Positions 2-12,265 of a DNA stretch of 20,000 bases are shown here, piece by piece. The notes beneath the pieces were generated by a model that was given only the letters and a program-made list of their open reading frames with translations, made no database searches and was not told the origin of the DNA. Source of the stretch: an uncultured virus (IMG/VR IMGVR_UViG_3300029309_000019) (taxonomy: Duplodnaviria; Heunggongvirae; Uroviricota; Caudoviricetes); the IMG/VR virus record IMGVR_UViG_3300029309_000019, positions 44,678 through 64,677 of that record, one strand, 5' to 3'. The position numbers were made by a program, and so were the translations under genes. Positions within the stretch are counted from its first letter, which is position 1. Each line of letters begins with the position of its first letter.

Positions 2-3000
2 ATAGGTCAAGAAGTAGTTGACTTTACTCAACAAGCAGAAGTAGTTATTACAAGAAAGCAAACTAAAGTGATGGAGGATAAGCTACGTGCTTACAGAGAT
101 GGTTTAAGAAGAGGTGGTATAAATACTAGAAAACTTACAAGAGATTATAAAAGAGAGATAGAGAAGTTTATCAAAGAAGACCTTGGGATACCTCAGTCAA
201 TACTTACTAGGTCAGAAGTCAAAAGAATGACTAAGAAGATGTTTGAGGTTACAAGCCCAGAGCAAGCTCATAGAGCGTTAACAGAGATTGTAGCTATTGC
301 AGAAAAAGCTAAAAACAGAGAACTTCTTACACAGTTAGAAACTCTAGGTAAAAAAGGACTAAAGGTTACAAAGCAAGGCTCTATTAGAAAGGGTAAGGCA
401 ACTGCGGAAGCTCAAGCTACATTTGATAAAATGAACGAGATGATGAGGTCAGAGATGACTAAAGAGCAGGCTCAAGATAGAATGTCCGAACTTGTTGATA
501 AAATAGAAACATTAGAACCTGGCACAAAAGAGTATAAAGATGTGGCTAACGAAATAGAAATGCTAGGATTTGTTGGTTACAAATCTCAATCTAATCAGCA
601 GCTGCAAGACTTACAGGCTAAAATGAAAAGAGTTGTTGAGGATGGCAGAACTGAAAGACAACACAAAGACGCTGAAAGAAGTGCTGAGAAAGAAGCTAGA
701 GTAGAAGAGTTTTTGAAGATTCTAACCAAAGGAGATGGAGTTGCTGTTACTACAGAGGGTAAATTAGATGCGTCTCGTATAGGTAGAACAATAGAGCAAA
801 TAAGTAATCTAGAAAACTGGATGTTAGGATGGGACGCTTTGATTGACAAAGTTTCTAAGTTTGACAAGTCTTCTGGTATGTATGAATCTGCGTTAAGTAA
901 GTTTACTGAAAACGTACACATCTCTGAGTTTAAAGAAAACGCAAAACAAGAGCAGTATATGTCTGAGGTAGAAGTTGCACTTCAAGATATTTATAAAACA
1001 TCAGGTAGAGCTCTTAATAGAATACTAAGACAAAACACAAAGGTTCAAGAAATAGGAACTTTTGAATTTGCAGATGGAACAACAAGAAGAGTAGTTGCTA
1101 GTCAAAATCAAGCCTATAAAAAAGTTATGGAGTGGAGAAATCCTGATGCCAAAGAAAAATTAGAGCAAAACAACGGATACACTCAAGAAGTTATAGATGC
1201 TATGGAAGCATTTTTAAAACCAGAAGTAAAGCAGTGGATGGAATGGCAGTTAGGTACTTTTTATCCTAAGACGGGTCAAGAAGGGTTAAAACAGGCTGCT
1301 GAAAGGTATGGAGTTATGCCAGAGCTTCAAACAAATTACTCTCCTTTAGTATTAAAGACAGCTGTTAGAAAAACAGGAGCTGAACTAACTCCTGAAGGAA
1401 CCGTGGCCTACACAACTACAGGGACTACTAAGTCTTTTATGAAACAAAGAACAAAGCATAAGCAAGAGGTGGACATGGTTGATGGTGACGCTATATTAAT
1501 GAAACATATTACAGACATGGCTCACTACACTTCTTGGGAAGGAACTGTAAGAGATTTGAGGTCTGTTTTTTATGATGGTAGAGTTAGACGTGCTATACAA
1601 GAAAATCACGGTGGTCAGATACTAGGTAAGATAAACGACTATATAGACACATTTGCTGCTGGTAGAAACTTAAAAGCTCAAACCATAAGCGCTATAGAAA
1701 ATGCTAGAGCAAGATTCGTTCAAGCTTCTATTGGATTAAACCCAGTAGTATTTGTTAAGCAGTTAACATCTATACCTGCGTATGTTGCTGATGTTGGTGT
1801 TAAAAAGTTTATAGATGGATTTACTGATGTATTGAATCCTACAAAAACAAAAGAGATATTTGACATACTTATGGAATCAGACTTTATGAAAGCCAGATAT
1901 AAAAAAGGTTTTGATAGAGACATGATGATTGCCATGAAGGAAATGAAGTTGAAGCCTAAAGATGGAATTACTTTAACAGATGTATCATTTGCTTTGACTA
2001 AGCTAGGGGATAAAATGGCAATTGTTGCTGGTGGATGGTCTGTATATAAATCAGCTAAGGCTGAAGCTATAGCTAAAGGTAAAAGCGAGGCAGAGGCTCA
2101 TAAGATAGCTTTAAACAGATTTTCTAAAGCTAGTAAAAGAGCTCAGCAGGCTGGTGGTATAGCTGACCTTTCTATGTTCCAACAAGGTGGTACATTTGCA
2201 AGATTAATGACAATGTTTAAGACTGCTCCAAACCAGTATTTTAGATTATGGGGTGGTTCAATTAGGTCTTTAGCGTACGGTAGAGGTAATAAGAAAAAAG
2301 CATTAAGAACATTTGCCCTTACTCAATTTGCGTTACCTATGTTTTTCCAAGCGGCTGCAAATGGATTTAATATATATGACGAAGACGCAGATTTAGAGTC
2401 AACATTTGATTATCTAGACCCAAGAAACTTAAGTAAAGAACAAAAAAGAGCAGCAGGACTTGGTGTATTTAACGGTGTATTTCTTGCTGGTGATATAATA
2501 GATAATCTATCAAGACACGTATATTTAGGTCAAAGCTTTGATTATGGCACAACACCTTTACAGTCTACTGTTAAAGAAATGAAAAGAGTTATTGACTTTG
2601 CTGAAAAGTTAGATTACGAAAACATGAGCGCTGAAGAAATATCTGAAGCCATAGATTTAACGTTAAATGTTGTTGGTAAAGCAACTGGTGTGCCATATCA
2701 ACCAGCTAGAAGAACATATGAAGGAGCTAAGGCATATATAGATGGTAAAACTGATGATGAAAGAAGATTGTTAGGTTGGTCTACATTTATGCTGGGTACT
2801 AGCGAAGAGAAGGAGTATGCCGATAAAATAATTAGTGAAGGCATATTGACCAAGAAAGAAGCTATGGAATCTTACAAACAGAAGTTTGAGATAGGTGGTA
2901 GTAGAGACGATAAGAAAGCTTTACAGGACTTTGAAAAGTATTATGATGCTTACTTAGCTTTTGGAGAAGAAGTTGATGGAGAGTTTGTTTTTAAGGATAG

Positions 3001-3586
3001 AGAAGCTATGTTCTTTTTAGATAAGTATACGCCTACCGAAAGAAAAGTAGCAAAACTTAGAGATTTACAAAAAGAGATGCCTGCTGATGAGTTTAGAAGT
3101 TTTTATCAAAAACTAGATAATAACAAACTTTTGTCTAATGATTTAAAGAAATCGTTCAGAAACAAAAAAGGTGTTGTTGAAGATAAGTCTGCTCTTGAAA
3201 ACATGGAGTATGTGTATGACGATTTAATTTTTGGCAAGGGTGATGTTACACCTGAAAACTTTAATTCTAAATTAAAAAAATCTTTTGAGACAGCATTAAA
3301 AAATGAATCTAATCCGTTCAAAAAGAAACAGATAGCTAGCAGATATAAATCATTAATTAAGAAGGCTGCCATACTAAAAGCTGTGGGAGAAAGACCTGCA
3401 TATTTCTATGATGCTCTGAGCCTTGAAGAAAACTCACAGACTAGACTTGAGATATTCAAGGAGGCTAGACAACAGCTTTCATCAGAAGAATATAAAGCTT
3501 TGTATTTTAATCTAGCAAAAGCTAAGTTCTTTAAAGACATAGAATTTGCTAGGGGTCAGAAGAATATACACTTAGGTGTTGATTAA
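2..3586 (+). CDS. Very large alpha-helical phage protein, 5'-truncated; probable internal virion / DNA-ejection protein
   Basis: The frame is open from position 2 (ata ggt caa gaa...) with no stop before the track's GTG at 68, so the gene starts upstream of the window. Over 1190 aa, K/E/A-rich, with mildly hydrophobic segments (IVAGGWSVY, FALTQFALPMFF, GLGVFNGVFLAG) as in podovirus-type ejected proteins. Lies just before tail-like genes. Function inferred from size, composition and position. Confidence 0.6.
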   Translation: MGQEVVDFTQQAEVVITRKQTKVMEDKLRAYRDGLRRGGINTRKLTRDYKREIEKFIKEDLGIPQSILTRSEVKRMTKKMFEVTSPEQAHRALTEIVAIAEKAKNRELLTQLETLGKKGLKVTKQGSIRKGKATAEAQATFDKMNEMMRSEMTKEQAQDRMSELVDKIETLEPGTKEYKDVANEIEMLGFVGYKSQSNQQLQDLQAKMKRVVEDGRTERQHKDAERSAEKEARVEEFLKILTKGDGVAVTTEGKLDASRIGRTIEQISNLENWMLGWDALIDKVSKFDKSSGMYESALSKFTENVHISEFKENAKQEQYMSEVEVALQDIYKTSGRALNRILRQNTKVQEIGTFEFADGTTRRVVASQNQAYKKVMEWRNPDAKEKLEQNNGYTQEVIDAMEAFLKPEVKQWMEWQLGTFYPKTGQEGLKQAAERYGVMPELQTNYSPLVLKTAVRKTGAELTPEGTVAYTTTGTTKSFMKQRTKHKQEVDMVDGDAILMKHITDMAHYTSWEGTVRDLRSVFYDGRVRRAIQENHGGQILGKINDYIDTFAAGRNLKAQTISAIENARARFVQASIGLNPVVFVKQLTSIPAYVADVGVKKFIDGFTDVLNPTKTKEIFDILMESDFMKARYKKGFDRDMMIAMKEMKLKPKDGITLTDVSFALTKLGDKMAIVAGGWSVYKSAKAEAIAKGKSEAEAHKIALNRFSKASKRAQQAGGIADLSMFQQGGTFARLMTMFKTAPNQYFRLWGGSIRSLAYGRGNKKKALRTFALTQFALPMFFQAAANGFNIYDEDADLESTFDYLDPRNLSKEQKRAAGLGVFNGVFLAGDIIDNLSRHVYLGQSFDYGTTPLQSTVKEMKRVIDFAEKLDYENMSAEEISEAIDLTLNVVGKATGVPYQPARRTYEGAKAYIDGKTDDERRLLGWSTFMLGTSEEKEYADKIISEGILTKKEAMESYKQKFEIGGSRDDKKALQDFEKYYDAYLAFGEEVDGEFVFKDREAMFFLDKYTPTERKVAKLRDLQKEMPADEFRSFYQKLDNNKLLSNDLKKSFRNKKGVVEDKSALENMEYVYDDLIFGKGDVTPENFNSKLKKSFETALKNESNPFKKKQIASRYKSLIKKAAILKAVGERPAYFYDALSLEENSQTRLEIFKEARQQLSSEEYKALYFNLAKAKFFKDIEFARGQKNIHLGVD

Positions 3587-3609
3587 AATCATTAAAATTC
3601 GTATATTTG
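3579..3609 (+). promoter_or_regulatory. Bacteroidota primary-sigma promoter (TTG-N20-TATATTTG)
   Basis: TATATTTG at 3602-3609 matches the -7 consensus TAnnTTTG. TTG at 3579-3581 lies 20 nt upstream. Intergenic, ending 18 nt before the ATG at 3628. Confidence 0.65.
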
Positions 3610-5521: not shown

Positions 5522-6556
5522 ATGAAAAAAATAGCTTACTTATTATTATTTTTTTTGTTATCGCTATCTGCGACAGCACAGTTTAAGAAAGCTATAAAAT
5601 TTTCTACATTCTATGTGGCTGCTAATGGGGGTACATCTTTATCAGATAGAGAGGTGTACTCTGTTAATAGTAGCACACTATTATACGACACAATTATTAC
5701 ACCATACGATTACTCATTAGCTATGGGTATACGTAAAATACAGAGGTTTCAATATGAACCTCAACTACCATTTAAAGATGGTACAGAATCCTCTTTTTCT
5801 GATGCGGCTAACATAGGCAGAAATCCTTTTGAGTATTTATTTCAAATAGAATATAAAAGACAAGAGGGGATAGAATACTTAGACCAACATCATTTTATAA
5901 GATACATTAGACCAAAATGGTTTACAAAAGCTGAGTATATTAAAGATGGTTTTGCAGACATAGAATACTTTGAAGGCACACATAGACTAAGATTGAATGG
6001 TAGCAAAAAGTTATCATTCAATATAGGTGCTGTGCAAAGGCTAGCAGAACCATATGGCTATGACCCGCTAGAAGAGTGGACAATGACTACTGGTGATATA
6101 CACTATACACAGCTAGCTATTGAAGAAGGATATAGTATAGATGTGTATGAATCTGAATATAGAGCGCCAAGCGGTGCTATTGTAGCAACTAGTTCTGAAG
6201 TATGGAATGAAGTTGTTATGCCACAAGTATTAGAAGACTATGTGTCTAATAAAAGAGGACAGTTAGCTAATCAGTGGCAACACTCACTAGTTATAGGATT
6301 TGATTTCTATCACTACAAGAAAAACTTTTGGTTACACTCCTGGGGTAACCTAATGCCTTATCACTATGATGATGATAGTGAATACTCTTATCATAATTTT
6401 AATGACGAAGAACAATGGTATGATTACTCAGGTGGTATTATATTTGGATTGAAAGCAACTAAAAGTTTGGGTTGTTTTATAGAAGGAAAATACAATAAGT
6501 ACTGGAATAAAGAATGGTACGGATTTAAATTAGGAATTAACTACGTTATACTTTAA
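5522..6556 (+). CDS. Exported protein, probable outer-membrane beta-barrel
   Basis: Sec signal MKKIAYLLLFFLLSLSATA|Q. Many alternating aromatic/hydrophobic strands (LVIGFDFYHY, FWLHSWGN, YSGGIIFGLK, LGCFIEGKY) and a terminal strand YGFKLGINYVIL resembling a beta-signal. Confidence 0.7.
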   Translation: MKKIAYLLLFFLLSLSATAQFKKAIKFSTFYVAANGGTSLSDREVYSVNSSTLLYDTIITPYDYSLAMGIRKIQRFQYEPQLPFKDGTESSFSDAANIGRNPFEYLFQIEYKRQEGIEYLDQHHFIRYIRPKWFTKAEYIKDGFADIEYFEGTHRLRLNGSKKLSFNIGAVQRLAEPYGYDPLEEWTMTTGDIHYTQLAIEEGYSIDVYESEYRAPSGAIVATSSEVWNEVVMPQVLEDYVSNKRGQLANQWQHSLVIGFDFYHYKKNFWLHSWGNLMPYHYDDDSEYSYHNFNDEEQWYDYSGGIIFGLKATKSLGCFIEGKYNKYWNKEWYGFKLGINYVIL

Positions 6557-6559
6557 AAG

Positions 6560-6646
6560 ATGAAAAAAATTTGTAACTTAATTAAAATGTTAACTTTTGG
6601 AAAAGTGTGTTTAGGACACTGCTGTTCTAGTAACTGTGAGAGATAA
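6560..6646 (+). CDS. Unannotated 28-aa cationic Cys-rich peptide MKKICNLIKMLTFGKVCLGHCCSSNCER
   Basis: ATG at 6560, 3 nt after the previous stop. Its TAA (6644-6646) overlaps the next ATG (TAATG), so it exactly fills the gap. 5 Cys. Confidence 0.7.
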   Translation: MKKICNLIKMLTFGKVCLGHCCSSNCER

Positions 6647-6924
6647 TGGCAACTGAGATAAGCAAAGAAACAAAACTAAAATTAAGTTTAGAAACTATAA
6701 TAGCTATAGGTTTTGTGTTAGTAACAATGACTGGTATGTGGTTTACATTGAAAGCTGAAATACAAGAGGCAAAAGAATTACCTGAGCCACCACCAGCAGA
6801 AGTTACACGAATGGAGTTTGATATGAAAGACCAGCTTGTGCGTCAAACAATAATGACTACACAAGAGGATGTGAAAGAAATCAAGGAGACACTAGAAAAA
6901 ATAGAACGAAAGATTTATCAATAA
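6646..6924 (+). CDS. Single-TM membrane protein with Pro linker and C-terminal coiled coil
   Basis: TM IIAIGFVLVTMTGMWFTL, linker LPEPPP, heptads VKEIKETLEKIERKI. TAATG overlaps at both ends. Confidence 0.75.
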   Translation: MATEISKETKLKLSLETIIAIGFVLVTMTGMWFTLKAEIQEAKELPEPPPAEVTRMEFDMKDQLVRQTIMTTQEDVKEIKETLEKIERKIYQ

Positions 6925-7262
6925 TGTGGAAATACTTTGGAACCTATTTATTAGTATTATTTTTCTTGGCTCTCTCGCATATTGCTTCATGTCAGGTGAC
7001 AGCGATTCATTTTAACGCTGGCTTTAACGCTCATAATGATGTTGAGTGGTTTGATGAGTTAGTGGATTGTGAAAAAGAAAGCAAGACCATTGATGGTAAT
7101 GACAATCAAAAAAAGTACACGATAGCAGTTGTACCTACTATAATTGTGTTTGATGAAGGAGAAGAGGTGAAAAGATTTCAAGCAGACCTAAGTTTTAAAA
7201 TGGTAGCTACTGAAAAAGATGTGCAGGATTATATTGATGAATTAATAATGAGTAAATTTTAA
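6924..7262 (+). CDS. Exported thioredoxin-fold protein lacking CxxC
   Basis: Signal peptide ending IASC-Q. Thioredoxin signatures HFNAGF (cf. F.A.W) and KYTIAVVPTIIVFDEGEEVKRF (cis-Pro VPT, F..GE). The CxxC position reads NAHN. Confidence 0.7.
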   Translation: MWKYFGTYLLVLFFLALSHIASCQVTAIHFNAGFNAHNDVEWFDELVDCEKESKTIDGNDNQKKYTIAVVPTIIVFDEGEEVKRFQADLSFKMVATEKDVQDYIDELIMSKF

Positions 7263-9118
7263 TGAACAACTTTACTAAATTTTTATACGCTTTTATAATA
7301 TTTATAGTATTTACTATTTCTATTTCTTTTGGACAATGCCCTCCAAGTACATGGAGTTTAAATGTAACTATAAATCCTGACCAGTATCCAGAAGAGACAT
7401 CATTTTATGTTTTGAACTTAGGTGGTGACACTATTTTTCAAGGGGGCCCTTTTGAAAATATAGTAGATTATCAACCTCAATATATTAGCTCCTGTGTACC
7501 AATAGATAGTTTTATATTAGTTTTAAAAGATGAATATGGTGATGGTATGGCTGGTAGTTTATGGGGCGGTAATGATGGCTCTGTATACATAGAACAATGT
7601 GGCGATACAATTTGGCAACTAGACACACCAGACTTTGGTTATGAAATATACGATACAATATATACTTCTGGATGCCCTCCTCCCGCACCAATATATGGTT
7701 GCATGGATGAAAACTTTTTAGAGTTTTTACCAGTGGCAACAGTTGATACTGGTATGTGTGTTACACCAAAACTATTTGGTTGCACTGATTCACTAGCTTT
7801 TAACTACGATTCTACAGCTAATATAGATGAATATATAGATAGCTGTGCACATGAACTAGAATTAACCGACCTAGCTGGAAATGGTTGGGCTGGTTCTACA
7901 CTGAAATTATATCAAGCAACAAACATAGTACCTCCGTTTAATTATGAAGATATTGGTACATACACATTAATAGATGGTTTTGATACGACTTTCTTTATAA
8001 ACCTAGCAGCAGATTATCCTGTCAAAGCAGTATTTGAAATTACACAACAATCAGACTTCACAGCAGTACAATGTGGATTTAGCTTGTACTCTGAAGATTA
8101 TGTAGCTATAGATATAGAAGGTGGATTTGTAAATCCTATACCACCATTCTTGCCAATCATGGCAGAACCATACTGTGGTAACACTTGTATAGAAAGAACA
8201 TATGGCTGTATAGACAGCTTAGCAGTAAATTATAACGACACAGTAAATACAGATGATGAAACTTGCTATTATAATCCAGGGTGTACTAATCCAATTTATT
8301 TGGAGTACAATGCGCTTTATGACTACGATGATGGTTCGTGTGCTACGTTGGTTGCATACGGATGCATGGACTCAACTGCATTTAATTACGACCCTTTGGC
8401 TAACGTGGAGCTACCTGGCTCTTGTATTGCTGTCGTAGAGGGCTGTATGGACGATGGTGCATTTAATTACAATATAAACGCTAATGTTGATGACGGAAGC
8501 TGTATACCTCTTATATTTGGCTGTATAGAGCCGTCTGCATTTAATTACTGTGATACATGTAATACAGACAATGGTAGCTGTATAGACGTTGTAAATGGCT
8601 GTATGGACAGTTTAGCACTAAACTACAATCCTTTAGCAAATGTAGATAATGGTTCTTGTATATTACCATTGGCGGGCTGCACTGATGTAACTGCAGTTAA
8701 TTATAATGTTAATGCTAACATACCTGACAGTAGCTGTTACTATGAGTCTGGTTGTTATGCTACAGTACCGTATTACATTCCTAATGCTTGTTTTGAATGG
8801 GTTATAGATATAGACCCTTATTGTTGTGATGACAGTTGGGATAACACATGTTATGACTTATATAATTATTGCCAAGATGGATGGTCGGGGCCAGTAAGCG
8901 TTGACATGTATAAGAGAACTAAATATATACCTTATCCAAACCCAACAAGAGACTACGTAAACTTTACTGAATTAGTAGATGTATTGGTTATAGATAATTT
9001 AGGTAAGAACCATAAGTTATATAAGAATACTAAAAGAATAAAATTAGATAAAGGAATAAACTATATAAAAGTTTCAAACAATAAATTAAGTTTTACTACT
9101 ATAATAATTGTACAGTAG
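7262..9118 (+). CDS. Secreted Cys-repeat surface protein with T9SS type-A C-terminal sorting domain
   Basis: Sec signal ...TISISFG|Q. Two acidic beta domains (DEYGDG, DLAGNGW), nine GCxD..A.NY...D.GSC repeats and a DPYCC..WD..C module. Basic C-tail YPNPTRD...IDNLGK...LDKGINYIKV...TTIIIVQ matches the Por secretion tail pattern (TIGR04183-like). Confidence 0.8.
   Translation: MNNFTKFLYAFIIFIVFTISISFGQCPPSTWSLNVTINPDQYPEETSFYVLNLGGDTIFQGGPFENIVDYQPQYISSCVPIDSFILVLKDEYGDGMAGSLWGGNDGSVYIEQCGDTIWQLDTPDFGYEIYDTIYTSGCPPPAPIYGCMDENFLEFLPVATVDTGMCVTPKLFGCTDSLAFNYDSTANIDEYIDSCAHELELTDLAGNGWAGSTLKLYQATNIVPPFNYEDIGTYTLIDGFDTTFFINLAADYPVKAVFEITQQSDFTAVQCGFSLYSEDYVAIDIEGGFVNPIPPFLPIMAEPYCGNTCIERTYGCIDSLAVNYNDTVNTDDETCYYNPGCTNPIYLEYNALYDYDDGSCATLVAYGCMDSTAFNYDPLANVELPGSCIAVVEGCMDDGAFNYNINANVDDGSCIPLIFGCIEPSAFNYCDTCNTDNGSCIDVVNGCMDSLALNYNPLANVDNGSCILPLAGCTDVTAVNYNVNANIPDSSCYYESGCYATVPYYIPNACFEWVIDIDPYCCDDSWDNTCYDLYNYCQDGWSGPVSVDMYKRTKYIPYPNPTRDYVNFTELVDVLVIDNLGKNHKLYKNTKRIKLDKGINYIKVSNNKLSFTTIIIVQ
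7691..8740 (+). repeat. Intragenic ~26-aa Cys repeats (GC[MTI]D..A.NY...A..D.GSC), nine copies
   Basis: Two copies at about 7691-7850 and seven tandem copies at about 8200-8740, separated by a non-repeat domain. Degenerate at the DNA level. Confidence 0.9.
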
Positions 9119-9121
9119 AAG

Positions 9122-9445
9122 ATGAGTAAAAGTAAATACTATTATGATTACACAAGAAATATGAGTAACGAACAAATACAAAAAATTTGCACAGAAGAAT
9201 GTGATTGTGTGGAAAATAAAAATAAATTAATTGACATATTCAAAGATGACAATAATTATAATGAAAAATCTATTGTAGGATTTATAGCATTTGCTATCAT
9301 GATTTTTGTTATATTTGTAGATGTGATTACTGGTTTCTTTGGAAAGGACTTAGTTATAAAAGAATTTGTATATAATTCATTTGTGGTTATAGTTTTAGGT
9401 TCTTTTGGAATCAGTGGAGTAGAAAAAATATTTAATAAAAAATAA
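9122..9445 (+). CDS. Two-TM membrane protein, holin candidate
   Basis: Hydrophobic segments IVGFIAFAIMIFVIFVDVITGFF and FVYNSFVVIVLGSFGISGV, a basic tail EKIFNKK, and a location near a putative lysin. Confidence 0.55.
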   Translation: MSKSKYYYDYTRNMSNEQIQKICTEECDCVENKNKLIDIFKDDNNYNEKSIVGFIAFAIMIFVIFVDVITGFFGKDLVIKEFVYNSFVVIVLGSFGISGVEKIFNKK

Positions 9446-9446
9446 A

Positions 9447-9854
9447 ATGGCAAAATTAAATGTATCTTTGACATTAACTTCTACAGATATACTACCTGGA
9501 GAATTAAGCTTTACAGAGACAGATGAAATCACTGTTACTGGTGTAACTAGTGGATTTGGTACTACTGATGCTCCTGTATCAGGTGGTTCAATAACTCACA
9601 TAAACTCTGTATCTTTTGCTGGTACGAATAAGAAAGCTTATATTTATCTAAAGCATACAGGATTAAAAGGAGATGGTACTACAACCTCAACTGACAACTT
9701 AAATGTTTATGATGATGATGATAAAGCTATCGCTATCTTAGCTCCAGGTGAGTTTTTGTTTTTACCAGTTCAGGATAATAATGACGTTGCTGTTCGTTCA
9801 GCTAGTGGTTCTAACACTATTCAGGTAGAGTTCTTTTTTGTTGAAGCAGACTAA
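9447..9854 (+). CDS. Beta-rich putative virion protein, paralog 1
   Basis: Shares MAK, AYIYLKHTG..GDG, LAPGEF..LP and EFFFVEA with the next gene. Confidence 0.7.
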   Translation: MAKLNVSLTLTSTDILPGELSFTETDEITVTGVTSGFGTTDAPVSGGSITHINSVSFAGTNKKAYIYLKHTGLKGDGTTTSTDNLNVYDDDDKAIAILAPGEFLFLPVQDNNDVAVRSASGSNTIQVEFFFVEAD

Positions 9855-9867
9855 TTAAAATAATAAA

Positions 9868-10308
9868 ATGGCAAAATTTTCGGTAAATTTATCAATAAGA
9901 AGCACAGAGCTTTTTTCTAATCAAGATGTTGTTATATCTGAAAGCGACACTCTTACTGCTGGTGGAGACGTTGTTGGATATGGTAAACTTGTTGTACCTT
10001 CTGGTAATGCGCATGGCTCAGCAATACCAGTAAACGTTGCAGATAGTTTTTCAGCTAAATCTTACGTATATCTAAAACACACAGGATTTGATGGTGATGG
10101 CTCTACAGCTACATCTCTTAATATTCTTGTATTCAATAGCGCTAGTACAAAAATTCAGTTTGCTACATTAGCTCCAGGTGAGTTCATGATTCTTCCTTAT
10201 ATAGGAGGTGGAGACTTTACAGACATCAATGTTTGTACATCTGACGCTTCTGGTTCAGCTACTACTGACCAAGCAACACTTGAGTACTTCTTTGTAGAAG
10301 CAGCGTAG
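9868..10308 (+). CDS. Beta-rich putative virion protein, paralog 2
   Basis: SYVYLKHTGFDGDG, LAPGEFMILP and EYFFVEA; colinear with the previous gene. Confidence 0.7.
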   Translation: MAKFSVNLSIRSTELFSNQDVVISESDTLTAGGDVVGYGKLVVPSGNAHGSAIPVNVADSFSAKSYVYLKHTGFDGDGSTATSLNILVFNSASTKIQFATLAPGEFMILPYIGGGDFTDINVCTSDASGSATTDQATLEYFFVEAA

Positions 10309-10309
10309 T

Positions 10310-10780
10310 ATGGAGCTTGAGGTATTAAGATTTAGCTCTCAGTCAGATTGTACTAACGGTTTACTTTTTGAAGTAACAGATTTAGGTAAAAGATTTTTGT
10401 GCTATACTTTGGAGGATGAACATAGAGCTTCCAAGGTTAAGGGAGAGACAAGAATACCAGAAGGTAGATATGAAATCAAACTTCGTAAGGAAGGTGGTTT
10501 TCATTCTCGTTACGAGAAAAAATATGCAGGAATGCATAAAGGTATGTTACATGTTCAGGATGTTCCAGGGTTTGAATGGATACTAATCCACACAGGTAAC
10601 ACTGATGAACATACCGCAGGATGTTTGCTTGTTGCTGATACACAACAAAATAACATCATTGTAAAAGATGGATTTATTGGTCAATCAGTAAATGCATACA
10701 AAAGAATATATCCTCCTATAGCTGAGGCTATAGAAAATAATGAGGATGTCTATATAACGTATATAGACTACGATTTGTAA
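10310..10780 (+). CDS. DUF5675-like protein, putative cell-wall enzyme/lysin (L,D-transpeptidase-like His/Cys motif)
   Basis: CYTLED...ETRIPEGRY...VPGFEWILIHTGNTDEHTAGCLLV pattern. HxGN..T.GC resembles the YkuD catalytic motif. Confidence 0.75.
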   Translation: MELEVLRFSSQSDCTNGLLFEVTDLGKRFLCYTLEDEHRASKVKGETRIPEGRYEIKLRKEGGFHSRYEKKYAGMHKGMLHVQDVPGFEWILIHTGNTDEHTAGCLLVADTQQNNIIVKDGFIGQSVNAYKRIYPPIAEAIENNEDVYITYIDYDL

Positions 10781-10831
10781 GATAACTTTCCTCCGTGTTA
10801 TTCAACATGGTTTGTTTTGTTGTTTGATGAG

Positions 10832-10863
10832 GGAGCCTCGTTTTGCGGGGCTTCTTTTTTTTT
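10832..10863 (+). terminator. Rho-independent terminator
   Basis: Stem GGAGCCTCGT / GCGGGGCTTC (10 bp including G-U pairs), loop TTT, followed by nine T. Confidence 0.85.
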
Positions 10864-10872
10864 GTATATTTG
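10842..10872 (+). promoter_or_regulatory. Bacteroidota primary-sigma promoter (TTTG-N19-TATATTTG) overlapping the terminator
   Basis: TTTG at 10842-10845, a 19-nt spacer and TATATTTG at 10865-10872: a full -33/-7 consensus upstream of the ATG at 10898. Confidence 0.75.
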
Positions 10873-10897
10873 CATTGAACAACAAATTTAATTCAAG

Positions 10898-11638
10898 ATG
10901 AAAGAGTACGGAAAAAGAATCCGATTATCCCCTGAAGAAGTACAATTAGTTGAAAATCATAGACTTACAAAAAACGTAGGTATAATTGGAGACACACATG
11001 AACCCTTCTGTCATCCAAGGTACAGAGATTTTTGTTACGAAGTTTTTAACAGGTTTGCCTGTGGAACTATAGTTCACATAGGAGATGAGGTAGATAATTC
11101 TGCTCTGTCATACCATGAGAAGATGGCTGAGATGCCTAACGCAGAGAGCGAAGCAGAAAAAGCTCAGAGAGCTATGGAGAGATGGTATGCAACCTTTCCA
11201 GATGTTATGGTATGTGTGGGAAATCATTCAGCTTTACCTTTTCGCCAGGCTACCACAGCAGGAATACCTAAAAGATTTATGAAGTCTTACGAGGAGATAT
11301 GGAATGCTCCTAAAGGATGGAAGTGGGAAATGGAATGGGAGATAGATAATGTTTTATATACTCATGGTACAGGTTCTGCTGGACAAAATGGAGCTAGAAA
11401 TAGAGCTATAGCTAACAGACAATCCACTGTTATAGGACATCTACACTCTTTTGGAGGTGTATCTTACATGGCATCTAGAAATGATATTATATTCGGCCTC
11501 AATGTTGGATGCGGAATATCTGTAGACCATATGGCCTTTTCATATGGTAAGGTGTTTCCAAAGAAACCAACGTTAGGATGTGGTGTTGTTCTAGATGAAG
11601 GAAGGACGGCTATATTTATACCTATGAATTTAGGAACA
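10898..11638 (+). CDS. Calcineurin-like metallophosphoesterase (3' end runs into the N gap)
   Basis: All five motifs are present: GDTH, GDEVD, GNH, THG, GHLH. Confidence 0.85.
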
Positions 11639-11648: not shown

Positions 11649-12265
11649 TGGAAGTGAATAAATACATTAACATAATTATATTTATTATATTTATAAGTCT
11701 AGGTGCTTATGGATATACTGAGTTGATGTCCTGGAAAAGCAAGTATGATAGTGTTCTGAAGATTGTTGAAGGTAAAGATGAGGCTATAAGAATGAATGAA
11801 AACGTTCTAAATGATTTGAAAAGTCAGAACAAAGAACTAAAAATAAAACTGAATGAGTTTAAGAATGTTGAATCTGTCACAAAGGTTGTTACTAAAACTG
11901 TCATTGATACGGTGGTTGTTGAGTACGACAATAGTATCGTTGTTGGTAATGATGGTACTTTTGTTGGCAATGTTGATATTGACTCCACATTTTACAATCT
12001 TAGCTGTACGTTCAATGAAAAGAGTTTTACATTAAATTCATTATCAATACCAAACACTCAGACTATAATAGTCGGTGATAAAAAAATAAGAGGATGGACT
12101 GGTATAACAACAGGCACAGAGTTTTCCGTGATAGTAGACAACACAAATCCCTACATTCAGAACGTGAATGTTCAAAACTATACAATAAAGAAAGAAAAGA
12201 AGTGGTTCCAAACGCAGGGATTCGCTGTCGGAGTCGGTATTCTAGGCGGACTCTTATTAGATTAA
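11649..12265 (+). CDS. Membrane-anchored coiled-coil/beta protein, spanin candidate (start probably at the gap edge, nTG GAA GTG)
   Basis: N-terminal TM YINIIIFIIFISLGAYGY, coiled coil, beta-rich region, then KKEKKW and a C-terminal hydrophobic Gly-rich segment GFAVGVGILGGLLL. Confidence 0.55.

Follow-up and report, generated by a model that had tools for sequence, protein, structure and literature searches.

The 20,000-nucleotide stretch analysed here (the window) constitutes the final 20 kb, positions 44,678 to 64,677, of the 64,677-bp contig IMGVR_UViG_3300029309_000019 of an uncultured marine phage (Caudoviricetes), which carries terminase, portal and virion genes as well as a primase-helicase. 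On its plus strand lies a gene for a predicted exported protein, hereafter the cargo, which ends in an altered tail that descends from a type IX secretion system (T9SS) sorting domain of type A, i.e., a C-terminal domain (CTD). The cargo gene is the last member of a conserved four-gene envelope cassette, preceded by genes for an outer-membrane barrel, a coiled-coil membrane protein and a thioredoxin-fold protein (Table 1); this setting, as well as the existence of published phage T9SS cargo, was missed by an earlier note written from the letters of the window. Seven of the 19 proteins scanned have PHROG matches, five of them to head and packaging families, and the four cassette genes have none. 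Both sequencing runs that contain more than half of the cassette's sequence words are marine, and one public contig, possibly from the same source sample, is identical to positions 8641-11638 (0 differences).

Table 1. Features of the cassette and its surroundings in the window (CTD, C-terminal domain; ORF, open reading frame; aa, amino acids).
Feature	Position	Strand	Remarks
Candidate Bacteroidota -7 promoter element TATATTTG	3602..3609	+	26 nt before ORF 3628
Predicted outer-membrane beta-barrel	5522..6556	+	344 aa; signal peptide
Single-pass membrane protein	6646..6924	+	92 aa; predicted C-terminal coiled coil
Exported thioredoxin-fold protein without CxxC	6924..7262	+	112 aa
Cargo gene	7262..9118	+	618 aa; no enzyme domain found
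Predicted Sec signal peptide of the cargo	7262..7333	+	residues 1-24; from hydrophobicity, model helix 3-23 and alignment; judged by pattern
Beta-sandwich domain A	7334..7693	+	residues 25-144; from model
Nine Cys/Asp-rich repeats of ~26 aa	7697..8743	+	two start at 7697 and 7778, the other seven run from 8204
Beta-sandwich domain B	7838..8179	+	residues 193-306; from model
Small helical domain, rich in Cys, immediately preceding the tail	8744..8896	+	kept across the cargo family
Divergent type A T9SS-like CTD	8897..9118	+	residues 546-618; YPNP at 8933-8944
DUF5675 gene	10310-10780	+	last gene of the unit; putative lysin
Terminator-like hairpin	10829..10857	+	closes the unit, after the DUF5675 gene

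The tail residues quoted in the earlier note lie in frame at the 3′ end of ORF 7262-9118, and the note had correctly placed the start of the YPNP motif at 8933. The switch from acidic to basic composition that it described is sharp: residues 26-545 include 76 Asp and Glu, 5 Lys and Arg, and 33 Cys, against 6 acidic and 13 basic residues and no Cys in residues 546-618 (isoelectric point 9.8). Searches with the two hidden Markov models that it suggested give matches to both, each under the curated cut-off. The tail alone scores 21.1 bits with TIGR04183 (cut-off 23; E 2.3e-4; model positions 2-72 of 72) and 19 bits with PF18962 (cut-off 27; E 1.7e-3), the whole protein 16.3 and 13.9 bits, respectively; the CTD match (residues 558-618, full-length model) ends at the extreme C-terminus. 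Of the 120 homologues listed, the first 60 were scanned: TIGR04183 matches 53 of them at E ≤ 0.05, and 23 attain its cut-off, the best with 44 bits. With a profile built from 52 family members, the two best PDB sequences are Flavobacterium johnsoniae CTDs (E 0.007 and 0.01).

The tail is also the best-folded domain of the cargo in the AlphaFold model (predicted local distance difference test, pLDDT, of 73-80 over residues 561-610), where it is predicted to form an Ig-like beta-sandwich. Its two best matches amongst 48,161 chains are 8glj_D (Z 8.1; root-mean-square deviation 1.8; 66 residues) and 8glk_D (Z 7.5), with the CTDs 5ag9, 8qb1, 8gl6_D, 8gl8_D, 5m11 and 5y1a at lower ranks. The two best fold matches are T9SS CTDs, where the earlier note had named the lack of any HMM or structural match to Ig-like CTDs, together with a lack of T9SS-dependent secretion, as the outcome that would tell against its assignment; homology to type A CTDs is supported by profiles, homologues and predicted fold.

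To compare the motifs, we aligned 162 distinct tails drawn from 202 proteins, from which six without YPNP had been dropped. The Gly of motif B in the loop between beta3 and beta4 (Gly581) is present in all 162 and the Gly of motif D (Gly598) in 160 of them. Three other positions are altered in the phage tail. The Tyr of motif B is replaced by Ile577. In motif D, the L..G.Y element that the earlier note had read does not hold, as the place of the motif Tyr is taken by Asn600 (G598-I-N600, followed by Y601); across the 162 tails, Tyr occupies this position 122 times and Asn 37 times. The terminal Lys of motif E, which the note had found missing, is indeed replaced, by Ile614. The tail thus represents a variant form, under the curated cut-offs and without the terminal Lys, as the suspicion of a divergent signal had anticipated; given the cut-off and the two motifs from which it departs, we do not count it among the canonical CTDs.

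A number of results weigh against taking this tail for a working sorting signal. Besides the two missed cut-offs, a Z of 8.1 is about the level reached by common folds, and the alignment behind the model contained canonical tails. A profile of eight cellular tails scores the phage tail at just 7.9 bits, a value attained by 8 of 1993 plain shuffles and, when YPNP is preserved, by 289 of 2000. With this score the tail ranks fourth among the phage's own ORFs; phmmer with the tail alone found no CTD in the PDB. Lys or Arg occupies the motif E position in 94 of the 162 tails, while the triple form I577/N600/I614 is limited to 35. According to the literature, the terminal Lys hardly ever varies and matters for function, probably in a later step (PMC10994853), and CTDs can be species-specific (PMC11285876). 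The signal of the tail sequence by itself is modest, and the case rests on the homologues and the predicted fold; taken together, the results show a tail that is CTD-derived and recognisable mainly via its family.

The sub-threshold scores and the weak cellular-tail profile could point to a decaying relic or a chance resemblance. We hold this to be highly improbable, as it is largely refuted by the homologues, selection and fold: the full-length model matches at the exact C-terminus, orthologues carry canonical tails, and the predicted fold is that of a CTD. Moreover, the ratio of nonsynonymous to synonymous substitution rates (dN/dS) in the tail is 0.08-0.23 in each of five pairs, a rough estimate with synonymous sites near saturation, and tail identity (67-77%) matches that of the passenger (63-76%). 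Judged from these sequence comparisons, the variant tail is maintained by purifying selection.

Canonical tails (37.8 and 40.7 bits) are borne by phages whose barrels share 87% and 83% identity with the barrel in the window. In a tree of 119 barrel proteins, from which partial barrels were omitted, as were close ones lacking a complete cargo, the variant tail (six rows) requires six changes, implying that variant and canonical tails have been exchanged. That tails interchange on one passenger is our main reason to think the variant tail likely functional. The joint replacement of the Lys and two Tyr, kept under selection, would also fit a tail that no longer uses the T9SS, the cargo being periplasmic or else exported or held by the phage barrel, along with the membrane and thioredoxin-fold proteins, as part of a phage-built envelope complex, an explanation that we regard as unlikely. 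The scatter of the variant tail on the barrel tree and the canonical tails of the sister phages argue that the barrel has not co-diverged with the tail.

What is published on CTD recognition bears on the altered positions. CTD binding is plastic and depends mostly on shape and hydrophobic contacts, conserved residues mostly specify the fold, and the structures suggest that the main role of the Lys is not in PorV binding (PMC10994853). The loop Gly, which the phage tails retain, is required for secretion (PMC11285876). GxN in motif D has been recorded for some Prevotella short CTDs, and a cleavage consensus PT/GI has been given (PMC11969387), which the linker preceding the phage tail (G-P-V-S-V) resembles.

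The passenger carries an invariant Gln-Cys-Pro (Q25-C26-P27) directly after the signal peptide. Residues 262-442, in the repeats, are unfolded in the model (pLDDT < 50). The profile libraries scanned gave no match of the cargo to an enzyme, lytic, lectin or adhesin family. The best match of domain A (Z 6.7) is 2xhh, a calcium-dependent carbohydrate-binding module, which is not a clear match, and domain B resembles CnaB/SpyCatcher-like chains (Z 6.8) with low confidence. The two beta-sandwich heads, weakly like a carbohydrate-binding module and pilin domains, and a stalk in common with giant host surface proteins would suit a T9SS-exported adhesin, by which infected cells stick to particles or hosts so that progeny are released near new hosts. 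The head matches remain below Z 7 and no lectin or adhesin family is recognised, and we give this role a small chance. The helical Cys-rich domain was found in one of the 401 genomes sampled, there on a phage-like contig itself. Its restriction to phages is a further point for the phage-built envelope complex.

Bacteroidota O-glycosylation takes place at the motif D-[ST]-[AILVMT] (PMC8729774). The cargo has 10 such sequons where 2.5 ± 1.5 are expected, and 89 distinct cargos together have 929 against 290 ± 16, with a 2.7-fold excess outside the repeats; these sequences are related, so the counts are not independent trials. Six control patterns in the same 89 cargos stay at 0.7-1.1 fold. A sequon is borne by 222 of 486 cargo repeats, compared with 2 of 76 in long proteins of the virion region and 86 of 282 in host proteins. 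The virion-region proteins that share the Cys/Asp repeat (L019:811-2859, L055-L060, L078-L081) have no signal peptide and mostly have Pro where the cargo has Ser or Thr. The excess is at least 2-fold in 68 of the 89 cargos. Speaking against a glycosylated surface stalk, it is under 2-fold in the other 21, and host repeat proteins display an excess of just 1.2-fold (209 against 173 ± 13). The abundant T9SS cargo of Porphyromonas gingivalis, furthermore, avoids O-glycosylation sites, which periplasmic proteins do carry (PMC8729774), so that the sequons argue for passage through the periplasm more than for surface display. The enrichment in Asp-Ser/Thr may also come from a structural or calcium-binding role.

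The cassette is widespread: barrel patterns occur in about 900-1600 viral stretches, and the cargo family numbers 6411 proteins at E ≤ 0.001 if matches to the repeats alone are counted in. One barrel homologue is present in BFVD. The Atlas clusters are 100% viral, and in GTDB genomes the barrel occurs on six contigs, which belong to metagenome-assembled genomes (MAGs) from unrelated taxa and in every case have phage-like genes around the barrel; a cellular origin of the cassette was rejected on these grounds. At 46 viral loci with the cargo, some of them cut short, the 344-aa, 92-aa and 112-aa genes are present at 41, 40 and 41, respectively. We assembled two sets of barrel loci, the best 80 of 576 and the best 80 of 587 confirmed stretches, which share a few contigs. 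In the first, the cargo stands beside the barrel at 62 of 80 loci and at all 48 whose two flanks each measure at least 4.5 kb (full-flank loci). The second set, with 79 loci, has the cargo at 43 of 47 loci with barrels of at least 45% identity (26 of 26 with full flanks) and at none of the 32 with barrels below 45%.

By their tails, the 48 full-flank close loci comprise 33 with a type A tail and 15 (L034, L038, L104, L111 and others) in which the same cargo ends in a short tail of ~38 aa. This short tail, recognised by no NCBIfam model, also terminates the chromosomal repeat protein L237:2303-5068, and is a candidate for an unmodelled T9SS signal. At three loci (L128, L183, L192), a tandem pair of type A-tailed repeat proteins precedes the barrel. 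The cassette also occurs on larger contigs (L041, L050, L051, L105, L112, L129, L167) with ribonucleotide reductase-like, Que-like or Gp23 capsid genes, names mostly assigned by eye, which indicates that it crosses phage lineages.

The barrel model (pLDDT 71) has ~12 membrane strands and a conserved insertion of ~75 residues (176-250), which in the model probably faces outside. Its best fold match is OmpG (Z 12.6), and 6h3i_F, presumably the PorV chain, comes at rank 21 (Z 9.5) among generic barrels. As the barrel has no match in Pfam (E ≤ 0.1) or NCBIfam (E ≤ 1), PorV and PorP models included, and resembles generic barrels, its being a PorV copy is not supported. The constant company of cargo and close full-flank barrels (48 of 48 and 26 of 26) and the large conserved insertion are in favour of the phage-built envelope complex mentioned above; the lack of the cargo beside barrels under 45% identity (0 of 32) and the lack of any match to a PorV or PorP model speak against it. 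The thioredoxin-fold protein (homology E 4.9e-7) has lost the WCxxC loop by deletion and with it the redox CxxC; Gln comes first after its signal peptide, no Cys is conserved, and there is no lipoprotein Cys.

The trio of barrel, coiled-coil and thioredoxin-fold proteins can stand without this cargo: among distant barrels with full flanks, 13 of 14 keep the trio, and at 10 of the 14 a lysin- or holin-like gene lies within 2 kb. With a DUF5675 or M15-like gene at 39 of the 48 close loci, and with the unit in the window ending in a DUF5675 gene and a terminator, the trio might be a lysis device, an unconventional spanin, in which case the cargo would ride along in the late operon or would help to rupture or vesiculate the outer membrane. 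Two-component spanins, such as lambda Rz/Rz1, have an outer-membrane lipoprotein partner with a lipobox Cys. The trio is like them in its inner-membrane coiled-coil protein, its late position and its nearness to lysin or holin genes in distant phages, and unlike them in lacking a lipoprotein partner, whose place is taken by an integral barrel and by an exported protein with a thioredoxin fold. Against the lysis device also stand the absence of a lytic domain in the cargo, the 9 of 32 distant loci that hold another exported protein with a CTD-like tail, and a separate coiled-coil gene with two membrane segments at ~11651-12265, which we take to be spanin-like by its architecture. We deem this explanation rather unlikely; the evidence for lysis concerns the trio, and the cargo could still be exported by the T9SS if it holds.

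Eight of those nine distant loci hold small proteins unrelated to the cargo and one a type A cargo. The former (L171:7554-8234 (P0391), L141, L172, L174, L175, L179, L203, L210) are exported proteins of 224-248 aa, with a Cys-rich head that has an LDL-receptor-A-like motif, and a stalk packed with sequons (57 against 7.8 expected in the eight proteins). Their tail resembles the Prevotella short CTDs and has no NCBIfam or Pfam CTD match. At another distant locus (L212:3790-9918), several exported proteins in a row, one of them a cohesin-like type A cargo, lie upstream of the trio.

The candidate promoter element (consensus from PMC6847099) and the terminator-like hairpin bracket the unit to which the cassette belongs. 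Such an element is absent, both inside and within 3 kb upstream, in 54 of 80 relatives, which suggests co-transcription with the virion genes; the cassette is probably expressed late. Short identical pieces in one metatranscriptome, whose contigs cannot tell RNA from DNA, cover the barrel, the thioredoxin-fold gene, the start of the cargo and other late genes, and none covers the tail. Scanning for sigma-70 promoters gave a chance-level result (40 against 41.5). Of the 20 intergenic TAnnTTTG sites across the genome, 9 are located 20-35 nt ahead of an ORF on the same strand, among late and replication genes alike. The virion module ends just before the cassette unit with a 3189-aa protein (contig 38694-48263; its end is at 68-3586 of the window), the window part of which has no Pfam or PHROG match. 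At 9122-9445 lies a gene for a small membrane protein (family TM24), possibly holin-like, that recurs beside the cassette. The gene at ~11651-12265 (+) is a frame of 204 aa, of unresolved start, with an N-terminal membrane segment, a coiled coil and a hydrophobic C-terminal end; it has no family match and one homologue (in L006).

The earlier note had implied a T9SS-positive host; a Bacteroidota host is supported by the promoter element, the relatives of the capsid protein and repeats shared with hosts. The capsid-like protein matches 85 GenBank phages, with less than 30% identity among the matches listed; all but one of them (84) are named for Flavobacterium, Cellulophaga or Maribacter. Neither cargo nor barrel has a match in 50,697 GenBank phage records, hence no cultured model was found there. 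Cargo-type repeats occur in 119 of 401 genomes, mostly of 1-2 Mb, sampled from the order of a Flavobacteriales MAG (G001). In 12 chromosomal repeat regions (L229-L240), the neighbours are ordinary cellular genes and the repeat proteins often have type A tails. Genes over cut-off for SprA, PorU and PorV-family proteins are present in 4, 4 and 5, respectively, of five repeat-bearing genomes. These sequence data support a Bacteroidota host for this phage.

We consider it quite probable that the cargo is exported by the host T9SS, and on balance likely that the altered type A tail still routes it there, with the stalk displayed or shed late in infection. From sequence, conservation and predicted folds we infer the steps of transport and function as follows. 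The cargo would be expressed late, alongside the barrel, the membrane protein, the thioredoxin-fold protein and the lysis genes, and would cross the inner membrane by Sec. In the periplasm it would form disulfides and be O-glycosylated at the D-[ST]-[ALIVMT] sites. SprA and PorV would bind the tail despite the missing Lys, and the tail would be cut near the G-P-V-S-V linker. This would leave an acidic, host-like, non-enzymatic and probably O-glycosylated stalk on the infected cell, or shed from it. The purpose is the least certain step: we tentatively suggest, with more doubt than conviction, that a stalk of host-type repeats could shield or remodel the surface during phage maturation, as a defence against competing phages. 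Quite unlikely, in our view, is a surface appendage that abundant ocean phages build on the infected cell, in which the T9SS-exported, host-glycosylated stalk docks on the barrel, itself tied to the inner membrane by the coiled-coil and inactive thioredoxin-fold proteins. If true, this would be the first case of a trans-envelope complex that a phage makes and a host T9SS supplies, and the Lys-less tail would be a natural signal that is exported yet escapes cleavage and the step of attachment to lipopolysaccharide by the host.

Phage T9SS cargo as such is already in print (PMC7468147, PMC6949934), and the literature found contains no phage protein demonstrated to use the T9SS. Bellas et al. (2020; PMC7468147) described Cryophage genes with type A sorting domains and proposed hijacking, possibly for superinfection exclusion; those cargos are variable enzymes or PA14 proteins, whereas here a conserved non-enzymatic repeat protein occurs in a fixed barrel cassette in marine phages. 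T9SS sorting-domain ORFs were also reported near virion genes of BACON-bearing gut phages of Bacteroidota (PMC6949934), with a different passenger and, in the available text, no cassette or mechanism described. The available part of PMC8776804 makes no mention of the T9SS. Among open-access texts, of which the supplements might list such genes, we found no account of this cassette or of the Lys-less variant. New here are the motif-level account of the variant tail, its selection and exchange, and the sequon controls. If the tail works, surface remodelling via the host T9SS would be routine in marine Flavobacteriales phages.

The chromosomal Flavobacteriales repeat proteins (L229-L240) have the same Cys/Asp repeat and type A tails, and one (L237) a short tail like that of phage orthologues; they differ from the cargo in being mostly far longer, with fewer sequons, no Cys-helical domain detected with this query and no adjacent barrel trio. 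With established type A CTD cargo (the F. johnsoniae FspA, NucA, RemA and RemZ CTDs 8GLJ, 8GLK, 8GL6 and 8GL8; P. gingivalis RgpB 5AG9), the phage protein has in common the signal peptide, the beta-sandwich, YPNP, the loop Gly, the motif D Gly and the basic charge. Unlike these, it is phage-encoded, has shorter loops, has the Tyr, Tyr and Lys replaced, and scores under the cut-offs. The variant tail is a natural test of the role of the conserved terminal Lys in T9SS biology, with canonical and Lys-less tails directly comparable on near-identical passengers.

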